Assembly: GCA_964016885.1 (NCBI GenBank)
Contig: OZ024742.1
Span: 309,008,001 to 309,072,000, forward strand
DNA length: 64,000 nt
Direction: 5' to 3'
Source: Eledone cirrhosa
Taxonomy: Eukaryota
Shown here: piece by piece, positions 49,650 to 58,084 of the stretch
How positions within the stretch are numbered: position 1 is the stretch's first letter
How the letters are laid out: every line of letters starts with the position of its first letter
Notes under the pieces: generated by a model
Told to the model about the DNA's origin: nothing
The model's input: the letters and a program-made list of their open reading frames with translations, nothing else
The model's database searches: none
Made by a program: the position numbers and the translations under genes

Positions 49650-50270
49650 TTTACGTCCGCTTTTCCCTGCTTGCAAGGGTCCTATTCATCACAGCATCTC
49701 TCCTTTTGTCACGGTCCTTCGTCATCTCCTCCGTGAGCTTCAGCGATCTGAGGTCTGCTTTCACCATCTCCGCCCATATTTTTCGTGGTCTTCTTCTACT
49801 GCGTCTTCCTTCTCCTGGGATTTCTTGGTATTTCTTTACCCACCGATCACCCTCCATGCGCATCACATGTCCATATCATCGCAGTCTTCTCTCCCGCACA
49901 CTACAGCTTATCCCTCTTATACACAGTTTCTCTCACAACTCACCTATGCTGGGTCGTTCACGCACATTGACATTGCACATCCAACGAAGCATACTTGCTT
50001 CATTTCTCTCCAGCCGTCGCATATCCTCTGCAGTTGCTTCCCATGTCTCACTACCATGTAGCATCGCCCATCTCACACAGGCATCATATAACCGGCCTTT
50101 CGTGCGCAGGGAGAAACCCTTCTTTGTAAACAGAGGAATCAACTCCCTAAACTTCTTCCAACCCGTCCTTATTCTAGATACTATGGCCTCGGAACACCCA
50201 CCTCCCATGCTAATCTGATCACCTAGGTACCGGAAGCTATCAACCACTTCTATAGAATCCACCTGCATTT
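49617..50270 (-). mobile_element. RTE-clade LINE 3' fragment with (GAT)n tail
   Basis: FRYLG, KGRLYDACVR.AMLHGSETW and GRRSRRRPRKIW motifs. Confidence 0.85.
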
Positions 50271-50348
50271 GAAAAATATGCCTATCACTGCGAATTCTAC
50301 TGTAGATACTTGAAAATGCAACTGGAGTCTTTTAAGAATATTTATTTA

Positions 50349-55690: not shown

Positions 55691-55866
55691 TATATCAGTA
55701 TACAAGAGCAATAACTCTTCCATACTGATTATCTCTCTTTGGTTATCAACTGTAGATATGATAGCGGAGCGAACTTATTTCGCTCACGCCTGTATCCGTA
55801 CACATTTACAGGAACGGGTTCATCTACCACTGCTACTACAACTACTACAACTACTGCTGCTGCTGT

Positions 55867-55902
<36 letters not shown>

Positions 55903-55914
55903 AGAATGTTACTT

Positions 55915-56060
55915 AAGAGAGTTGAGGATATTCTGTACAATGAACTTGGCATGACGAAAGTTTCTGCTCAGTGGGTGCCACGTCTTCTGAGATCTGATCA
56001 AAATTGCACCAGGCTGATCACATCAAAAGAAAATCTGAGATTGTTAGAGGCAAATCCAGT
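55915..56060 (+). pseudogene. Mariner transposase fragment
   Basis: ILYNELGMTKVSAQWVPRLL (WVPxxL motif). Confidence 0.75.
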
Positions 56061-56928
56061 TTTACAGAGCATACTGAGTGCTTTTTATCATGGTTACAGC
56101 ACTATCACTTTACAACGTCTACTGACATATCCAATGTCATCCCAGATCATATGAGCAGAATGGTGCAGTGAGTATGAAGGGAGAGTTAGAGTAAAGGAGT
56201 TTTAAGGAGATCAAATAGATAGAAAACAGGTGGAAACAATAGGTCGAAGGTAGGTGGGAGATATATTGGAAGGTAGGTTGGCTGGTAAGAGAAGCAGAGG
56301 CTGGCACCTCACTGGGATTTGAACTCAGAGAGCAGAGAGCTGGAACGAATACCATAAAGCATTCTATCCGACATTCTAATGACTCTGCCAATTTGTCGCC
56401 TATTTATACATACATACATACATACGTACATACATATATACTTTGTATGTATATATATATATTATATATGTACATTTAGAAACACACAGATACATGCGGA
56501 CACACACATATATACATGAATGCATCCGCACCCAACTGTGAGTTAAGGGTGCCAACTTCACCGATGTTGCTCAATGAATGACTGGGACAGACCAATTCAG
56601 TTTGAACCAGACTGAACCAGTATCAGAGTTAAAAATACATTATGAAGAGAGAAGAAACATTTAGATATAATTAGTAATAAAATGTATCATCTTTGAAGTG
56701 TGGGGACAACTGGAAAGCTTCCATTACTCATACTTCTCGCCTTCTTCACTACCTCTTCTACGGCCTCGATATGAATACCCCCTCCGCCTCCGTGGTATTT
56801 TTTTCGTGGTTATAAGAGGCTTAGCTCTGTTTCTCGACCGTTATATCGCGTGACTATCTCCCCCTCCGCCTTTTGGGATTCTTTCTCACGTCGTGTAGAC
56901 GCGTTCTTGAGACTAGTAAAATGAGGTA

Positions 56929-57016
56929 TCCTCTTGATAAGTCGGCAGACCTCGCAAGGACTCTATATCTTTGATATATTGTTTTTGTTTATGCCACGAA
57001 ACTACGTAGTCGAGGA
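56929..57016 (+). ncRNA. Hammerhead ribozyme, U3-A8 core variant (copy 1)
   Basis: Stem I tcctc/gagga; TTGATAA; stem II gt(c)ggca/tgccac; GAAA-CT-ACGT-AG-TC; predicted cut after C57011. Confidence 0.8.
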
Positions 57017-57519
57017 ATTTAGGAACAGTTTAGGTATGATACATTTTATTACTAATTATATCTAAATGTTTCTTCTCTCTTCATAATGTATTTTTAACTC
57101 TGATACTGGTTCAGTCTGGTTCAAACTGAATTGGTCTGTCCCAGTCATTCATTGAGCAACATCGGTGAAGTTGGCACCCTTAACTCACAGTTGGGTGCGG
57201 ATGCATTCATGTATATATGTGTGTGTCCGCATGTATCTGTGTGTTTCTAAATGTATTAATAACTCCCTCTGGTCGAGCAATCTTTGAAGTGTGGGGACAA
57301 CTGGAAAGCTTCCATTACTCATACTTCTCGCCTTCTTCACTACCTCTTCTACGGCCTCGATATGAATACCCCCTCCGCCTCCGTGGTATTTTTTTCGTGG
57401 TTATAAGAGGCTTAGCTCTGTTTCTCGACCGTTATATCGCGTGACTATCTCCCCCTCCGCCTTTTGGGATTCTTTCTCACGTCGTGTAGACGCGTTCTTG
57501 AGACTAGTAAAATGAGGTA

Positions 57520-57607
57520 TCCTCTTGATAAGTCGGCAGACCTCGCAAGGACTCTATATCTTTGATATATTGTTTTTGTTTATGCCACGAAACTACGTAG
57601 TCGAGGA
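57520..57607 (+). ncRNA. Hammerhead ribozyme, U3-A8 core variant (copy 2)
   Basis: Identical to copy 1; predicted cut after C57602. Confidence 0.8.
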
Positions 57608-58084
57608 ATTTAGGAACAGTTTAGGTATGATACATTTTATTACTAATTATATCTAAATGTTTCTTCTCTCTTCATAATGTATTATATATGTATATATATA
57701 TTATACATTAAAATCTAAGAAAAATGCTTCGTGTAAAGCTGTAAAGATTCAATCCATCAATTAGTCACTCAGGAATCTATTCAAATAATCAATAAATAAG
57801 TGTTGTGATGTAAAGGTGTATTGATATATTCACATTAACACACGCACACACACACACACACAACTCATTACACACTAATTAATTAGCAGCATAAAAGGAC
57901 AACTCTCAATTATCTTAATTAGTTCATCTTCTTAGTGGCAACTTTAGTGACATGTATATCTTCAAAGGTGTGTTGTTGTTTTTTACTGGTCATTAGTTAT
58001 ACATCACTGTTTGCATCAACAGAATTGAACTTAAGTTTTGCTTCCAACCCTTTTGTGACTGTATTTTTAATTAAGTATTTTCTA

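Follow-up and report, generated by a model that had tools for sequence, protein, structure and literature searches.

A young hammerhead repeat family of Eledone cirrhosa with Penelope-type insertion ends and signs of a probably edited and circular template

Introduction

How does a non-coding tandem repeat that carries hammerhead motifs return from RNA to the genome of its host? The question is raised by a short element in the genome of Eledone cirrhosa, located in a 64,000-nt stretch of contig OZ024742.1 (the window, to which all coordinates refer). The spread of animal retrozymes has been proposed, not shown. Reverse transcription on an RNA circle, with Penelope-like elements (PLEs) as candidate helpers, was put forward in PMC7229834; the retrozyme mechanism remains to be elucidated according to Li, Clavereau and Pollet (2026, 10.64898/2026.07.22.740005), and the way in which PLEs make tandem and inverted insertions is called undefined in PMC8557442. 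A literature search, with most subscription papers outside it, returned none that treats this family or describes edits common to the units of a retrozyme array.

The original prediction, made from the letters of the window, took the element for a candidate retrozyme or circular-RNA replicon. The family to which it belongs is young and abundant enough for the route to be read from the genome, and makes it possible to test directly both two-ended priming by PLEs and the step from circle to genome that has been proposed.

Architecture and genomic abundance

The features of the element are listed in Table 1. Two identical direct copies 591 bp apart had been described; the offset and the identity proved correct, while the second copy turned out to be only 404 bp long. 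Positions 56689-57092 and 57280-57683 are 100% identical, and the direct part thus comprises one full unit plus 404 bp (1.7 units). The predicted 220-bp inverted copy at the 5' end was also found, as 56471-56690 is 100% reverse-complementary to 57036-57255, and at the inversion junction the inverted arm and the direct unit overlap by 2 bp. The circularised unit holds no meaningful ORF, in agreement with the prediction: the longest frame from an ATG has 75 aa and the longest stop-free stretch 86 aa. An assembly artefact, which would have explained both duplication and inversion, is made unlikely by 47 insertions of common architecture with differing junctions. A bacterial promoter scan gave results at chance level and is not relevant here.

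Table 1. Coordinates of the element, its predicted RNA features and its flanks in the window
Feature	Position	Strand	Remarks
Whole element	56471-57683		between (TA)-rich flanks
Inverted arm	56471-56690	-	unit positions 348-567; outer end is fixed end E2 (~568)
One complete 591-bp unit	56689-57279	+	phase arbitrary, given by the point of inversion
Partial second unit, positions 1-404	57280-57683	+	ends at fixed end E1 (unit ~403)
Type I hammerhead motif, U3:A8 core	56929-57016	+	predicted cleavage after 57011; conserved across subfamilies
Second hammerhead motif, identical	57520-57607	+	predicted cleavage after 57602
Predicted 591-nt monomer, cleavage to cleavage	57012-57602	+	highly structured; fold z = -5.94, circular MFE -172.6 kcal/mol
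Predicted long hairpin	57002-57091	+	pairs stem III and cleavage site with the stretch just before E1
Predicted hairpin directly 5' of E2, where a second RT start is inferred	57175-57256	+	in folds including circular and consensus
Left target flank, (TA)n/(ATAC)n microsatellite	56401-56470		
Right target flank, (TA)-rich	57684-57706		

Other repeats surround the element. Immediately to its left lies a short, diverged, very high-copy repeat (56306-56395). A frame with a WVPRLL-type motif at 55765-56154 is presumably a mariner transposase fragment, and a 133-codon frame on the reverse strand (49933-50331) resembles the end of a LINE reverse transcriptase.

The window element is one insertion of a young, abundant non-coding repeat family. 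An exact 23-mer from the hammerhead occurs 7,458 times in the 3.0-Gb genome and its reversed control not once, so the hammerhead is not a product of chance. The first 100 of these matches belong to 51 insertions, from which a genomic total of roughly 3,800 can be extrapolated, and for an exact 42-mer from the young subfamily the count is 2,822. A DNA search for the unit, in which 40 of 628 candidates were scored, gave 199 matches on many contigs, those listed being mostly 99-100% identical; the same kind of search with the 201-bp hammerhead region returned no matches, the common words having probably been skipped. Recent activity, predicted from the identity of the two copies in the window, is supported by the many 100%-identical units dispersed over many contigs. 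The identity of older subfamilies declines stepwise from 99% to 72-75%, and the diverged ones are collinear round the whole unit. One of four contig sets of unrecorded kind contained a single 621-nt contig (the unit plus 30) in which the neighbouring repeat was absent, contigs being unable to show RNA or a circle. RNA records gave no holder of the sequence, a result that has no bearing on expression.

Insertions were sampled in two ways: 39 came from the best-scoring DNA matches, and the other 50 were reached by following the pattern hits along the genome up to the hundredth. After four of these 89 had been dropped for an identity below 93%, 85 were analysed; L053 and L056, which may have arisen by local duplication, are counted as two. 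All consist purely of tandem or inverted units, and no LTR-type architecture was seen in them. Five sequence-level features of retrozymes, namely tandem type I hammerheads, absence of coding capacity, absence of LTR architecture, dispersed multicopy occurrence and a stable monomer, are present. The family would work like a metazoan non-LTR retrozyme, a class that is itself already known.

Conservation of the predicted ribozyme

In the first hammerhead, stem I is formed by 56929-33 with 57012-16 (5 bp). It is followed by the core 56934-40, which reads UUGAUAA (U3:A8) rather than CUGANGA, and by a G-C-closed stem II (56941-47 with 56992-97) with a structured loop II of 44 nt. GAA at 56998-57000, a palindromic 10-nt stem III at 57001-10 and C17 at 57011 complete the motif. 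The second motif is identical at +591, with C17 at 57602. The complete type I hammerheads of the original prediction are therefore there, with their stems and palindrome in both copies; that the core is a U3:A8 variant had gone unstated. This variant has been described from Schistosoma PLEs (PMC4209133). Rfam gave no hammerhead match to the element, either at the gathering threshold or at E <= 5, and a few weak miRNA-like matches on AT-rich hairpins were discarded.

The two blocks that form the hammerhead do not differ at all between the most distant subfamilies compared, whose overall agreement is 75% (458 of 611 columns). Covariation did not rise above shuffles: two pairs changed on both sides, and 70 of 500 shuffles scored as high. 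It is thus on conservation, and not on covariation, that the predicted ribozyme rests. Double changes occur in single copies, in stem I (L104) and in stem III (L226). Since only one of nine predicted retrozyme dimers was cleaved in Li et al. 2026, cleavage of the ribozyme predicted here is not assured.

None of 100 shuffled sequences folded as stably as the monomer, and its z score refers to this set. Locally, the active hammerhead fold (-20.7 kcal/mol) is 1.1 kcal/mol from the predicted minimum (-21.8 kcal/mol), and a duplex between two stem III palindromes is predicted at -12.9 kcal/mol. The predicted circle fold would block the ribozyme, its long hairpin taking up stem III and the cleavage site. 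This hairpin is retained in the consensus fold of 17 diverged copies and ends at E1, the first inferred reverse transcription (RT) start site.

Insertion footprint

The outer ends of the insertions obey a simple rule. Among 132 arm ends, 129 lie at two fixed sites, 64 at E1 (unit 397-408) and 65 at E2 (unit 564-576), which are 165 nt apart; E1 is about 78-80 nt downstream of the predicted hammerhead cleavage site. One E1 and one E2 end are combined in 45 of the 47 two-armed (head-to-head) insertions, and pairs of the E1/E1 or E2/E2 kind are absent from all 47. An insertion viewed separately, outside the sample of 85 (L289), fits the pattern. Nearly all arm ends (127 of 132) adjoin (TA)n. As to target-site duplications, which in metazoan non-LTR retrozymes exceed 4 bp when present, flank pairs share at least 12 nt in 8 of 84 cases, against 0-4 in five shuffled pairings, the flanks being of low complexity.

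The inner breakpoints are scattered, and 3 of the 132 come as close as 3 nt to the predicted cleavage site, where about 1.6 would be expected. They seem to cluster at unit 103-109, 369-375 and 499-521, perhaps through pausing of the reverse transcriptase at hairpins. Insertion length reaches 11.3 units, most insertions having fewer than 3. Twin priming of the L1 style, with abutting arms, was rejected upon inspection, as inner breakpoints do not meet the start of the other arm.

PLE insertions carry an inverted 5'-truncated copy and a tail at one end (PMC8557442), a pattern explained by two internal RT start sites and the cutting of both target strands (PMC11167929). By analogy with these elements, the ends of the family insertions match the PLE insertion pattern. 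Copies of the family also lie in the (TA)n flank of PLE ends at L133, L151, L183, L226 and L271, so that targets are evidently reused.

Sequence variants within insertions

Units within one insertion share a haplotype. When non-ancestral variants covered by at least three units were sorted by their distribution, 24 were array-wide, 5 occurred in two units and 66 in a single unit; in 10 insertions, 19 array-wide variants span both arms. The two main kinds differ in type. Read on the hammerhead strand, array-wide sites show 28 A>G against 8 T>C changes, of 62 (p = 2e-6), whereas single-unit events show 11 A>G against 17 T>C, of 122 (p = 1), and are dominated by C>T and G>A. In the youngest background, where ancestral states cannot be confused, 9 of 12 array-wide variants are A>G, as are 2 of 47 single-unit variants (p = 9e-7). 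Some insertions had been picked for repeated one-mismatch scores, which favours array-wide variants, not their type. A strand-specific excess of A>G is the mark of ADAR editing. The neighbour preferences of ADAR were present in the expected direction and were not significant (p 0.28-0.50).

The clearest case is L160, where seven A>G changes occur in every unit that covers them. A marker made of three of them has 7 genomic matches, all inside L160, four on one arm and three on the other. By the same test, the marker of L291 has 41 matches in 11 places and that of L175 has 13 matches in 5 places; of three array-wide markers searched for in the whole genome, two are thus not private, which means that part of the array-wide variation is inherited or recurrent. 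One family insertion, with 11 segments and one E1 and one E2 end, has a uniform haplotype that is shared, as the 41 matches show. Where units run across the cleavage site, 254 of 255 crossings are unchanged within 5 nt and none has an indel.

Taken together, the array-wide A>G excess, the L160 haplotype and the seamless crossings point to one edited monomer that was read repeatedly, most simply as a covalent circle. The monomeric, probably circular template of the original prediction thus receives indirect support from these observations and from the sharing of variants by both arms. The word 'replicon', if understood as RNA-to-RNA replication, has no support here.

The five variants confined to two units (in L167, L168, L183 and L143) are not explained by one monomeric circle. 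At L167 (G000:C2:338169500-338179000), both arms carry two rare transversions, the order on one arm being the reverse of that on the other. A multimeric template, conversion between arms or an assembly error could be at the origin of such variants.

Helper elements

A GIY-YIG search, with 150 matches scored of 10,596 candidates, provided 96 loci that were examined for attachment to the family. In none of the 96 was the family joined to the PLE ORF; family sequence was present in two, in both cases beyond a (TA)n run. The 5' flanks of single-arm insertions have TA within 40 nt in 29 of 38 cases, and when the other nine were compared with the GIY-YIG loci, two proved to be further element arms and none matched an RT/endonuclease frame. 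A possible objection, that the repeats are pseudo-LTRs (pLTRs) joined to a PLE ORF, thus found no instance among the copies examined. The original prediction of a non-autonomous retrozyme served in trans by a PLE reverse transcriptase is supported by the PLE-type ends, the (TA)n targets, the head-to-head arms and the lack of an attached ORF in these copies. Taken alone, mobilisation of the family by PLEs is highly probable.

A Neptune-type PLE family, here called N1, is the best helper candidate in the genome. It encodes RT and GIY-YIG domains with a CX4CxxC linker, a mark of Neptune and Nematis (PMC8557442), and its 775-aa stop-free frame is intact in 7 of 12 loci. N1 has a U3:A8 hammerhead of its own, and its two ends in (TA)n lie about 76 and 141 nt downstream of the cleavage site predicted for it; pairing of the E1 plus E2 type was found in all six N1 insertions with both opposed ends detected (17 loci scanned). 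The unit and the N1 pLTR have no alignable similarity, 277 of 300 shuffles scoring as high, and even the best N1 copies agree with the query copy at no more than 97-98%, so N1 may be older than the youngest family insertions. For both reasons N1 is a candidate only. A protein search with the N1 frame returned 766 relatives and no useful clade name. In most N1 copies (L277-L287) the RT-endonuclease frame starts well downstream of the ATG that follows the pLTR, which suggests an intron or a shared frameshift.

Two other leads were abandoned. A short-loop hammerhead search for a parent PLE gave 32 matches, to judge by their sequence nearly all of them junction or deletion forms of the family, and an apparent chimeric retrozyme-N1 insertion at L133 proved to be a separate small N1 insertion next door.

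Discussion

Our reading, to which we give a probability of about 0.7, is that the family is a non-LTR retrozyme whose edited, likely circular monomer RNA would be reverse-transcribed repeatedly by Penelope RT/endonuclease from both sides of a break. Transcription would run through two hammerheads, and cleavage would probably take place as a dimer held by the stem III palindrome, as predicted from the motif. The monomer would then be ligated to a circle whose fold blocks the ribozyme; ligation by RtcB has been shown for other retrozymes (PMC7229834). A>G changes would arise in the monomer template, the pattern being that seen in the arrays and ADAR the presumed agent. Both (TA)n target strands would be cut, each 3' end priming RT at E1 or E2; the footprint is observed and the chemistry is suggested by analogy with PMC11167929. 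Each RT may run for a fraction of a unit up to about seven units on one template, and the two cDNAs may be linked in head-to-head orientation at points that vary, or a single arm may be linked to the far flank, a route that would yield the observed architecture. We lean slightly towards a bolder version, according to which the insertions would be genomic fossils of rolling-circle RT by a dimeric PLE enzyme at two fixed sites of one ADAR-edited circle, both RTs writing the edits into both arms. Host RNA editing would then act as a heritable mutagen that seeds retrozyme lineages.

Among the points against this hammerhead-dependent reading is a result obtained in vitro. Hammerhead mutants of an anole PLE did not affect insertion and unprocessed RNA was the dominant substrate (PMC11167929), which favours an alternative: the PLE machinery would copy uncleaved linear multimeric transcripts, the hammerhead would be dispensable and uniform arrays would derive from uniform source arrays. 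Such copying accounts for the seamless crossings of the cleavage site, and small subfamilies with shared markers do exist. However, multimers would be edited unit by unit, whereas the A>G excess is array-wide and not single-unit; nowhere else in the assembly does the L160 haplotype occur; insertions of up to 11.3 units, in a family where most have fewer than 3, require length to be regenerated; and the hammerhead blocks are identical across subfamilies only 75% alike. We consider this alternative unlikely. Improbable, too, is a template that remains a cleaved linear monomer without covalent circle, on which RT repeatedly jumps from the 5' end to the 3' end of one molecule, even though the same array-wide sharing of edits would be expected. 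In R2 elements, RT jumps usually leave extra or missing bases. Here the crossings are unchanged with a single exception and free of indels, and breakpoints do not pile up at the cleavage site, although linear monomers do coexist with circles in other retrozymes (PMC7229834).

Growth at the DNA level is discussed by Li et al. 2026 as a route to tandem arrays, and the five two-unit variants, some of which lie on opposite arms, could be conversion tracts. Short copies would insert and then be amplified or homogenised by unequal crossing over, inter-arm gene conversion or DNA rolling circle. The dispersed 100%-identical multi-unit arrays, however, have kept single junctions and E1/E2 ends that are intact, only array-wide variants show the strand-specific A>G excess and 66 single-unit variants persist unconverted, all of which makes this route quite improbable. 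That the repeat is simply the pLTR of an autonomous PLE, left as truncated copies, would agree with the PLE-type ends and with the U3:A8 hammerhead, as in the PLE pLTRs of this genome, and the examined loci were only 96 of the 150 scored GIY-YIG matches. Yet unit follows unit directly, up to 11 copies without ORF, collinearity extends round the whole unit even between subfamilies 75% alike, and no examined copy is joined to a PLE frame; we regard this explanation as very improbable indeed.

The family resembles the metazoan non-LTR retrozymes described in PMC7229834 and by Li et al. 2026 in its non-coding head-to-tail units with a type I hammerhead in each, its thousands of copies, its GC content below 50%, its highly self-paired monomer and the presence in the genome of PLEs, proposed there as helpers. 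The unit of 591 nt exceeds the 170-400 nt of PMC7229834 and falls inside the 51-972 bp range of Li et al. 2026. The U3:A8 core and the 44-nt loop II set it apart from known metazoan retrozymes in these sources, as does the predicted self-blocking circle, which among animals is given in the accessible text of PMC7229834 for some mussel circles only. Head-to-head arms, two fixed ends, (TA)n targeting and editing scars, all seen here, do not figure in the accessible descriptions of either source. Cleavage and circles, in turn, have been shown for their retrozymes, whereas ours are predicted from sequence.

Neptune, Poseidon and Naiad PLEs (PMC8557442, PMC11167929) share several traits with the family: copies that are tandem and, when inverted, 5'-truncated, with a tail at one of the two ends only; a pair of internal RT start sites with a hammerhead upstream of them; and targets that are AT-rich or (TA)n. 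Unlike them, the family has no ORF and reaches 11 units per insertion, and its unit could not be aligned to any of the pLTRs sampled; its tail measures 165 nt, compared with 30-40 nt in those sources and about 65 nt in the local N1. The minimal hammerheads of Schistosoma Cercyon elements (PMC4209133) have the same U3-A8 core, 5-bp stem I and palindromic stem III suited to dimer cleavage; here, in contrast, the motif resides in a protein-free tandem unit, its palindrome has 10 nt and its stem II is extended over a long stretch. MRC1 and similar Chlamys PLEs are also non-autonomous passengers with multicopy head-to-tail insertions. According to PMC8557442 those of the MRC1 type resemble autonomous partners at the 3' end and belong to a clade without canonical hammerheads, whereas the present family has a hammerhead and yielded no alignable partner among the PLE copies sampled.

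The strict rule of one end of each kind, together with editing marks that serve as barcodes of single template molecules, is what makes this family informative. Exact substrates for work in vitro can be named: the 591-nt RNA, its two start sites and a candidate enzyme.

The genome contains further hammerhead elements. A second GIY-YIG family, seen at element 3' ends in L220 and L226, has a UUGAUAA core like that of our element, so U3:A8 is common among the PLE-type elements of this genome. A different tandem family carries six C3:G8 motifs about 470-510 bp apart (L258:2067-4495), and hammerhead pairs 310 bp apart in L281 and L287 represent another retrozyme-like family flanking N1 copies. Other hammerhead types, with a long stem II or palindromes of 8-10 nt, end near (TA)n at L256:9052, L269, L257, L254 and L091. 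Many hammerhead families of the long-stem-II or 8-10-nt-palindrome type are present in this genome.
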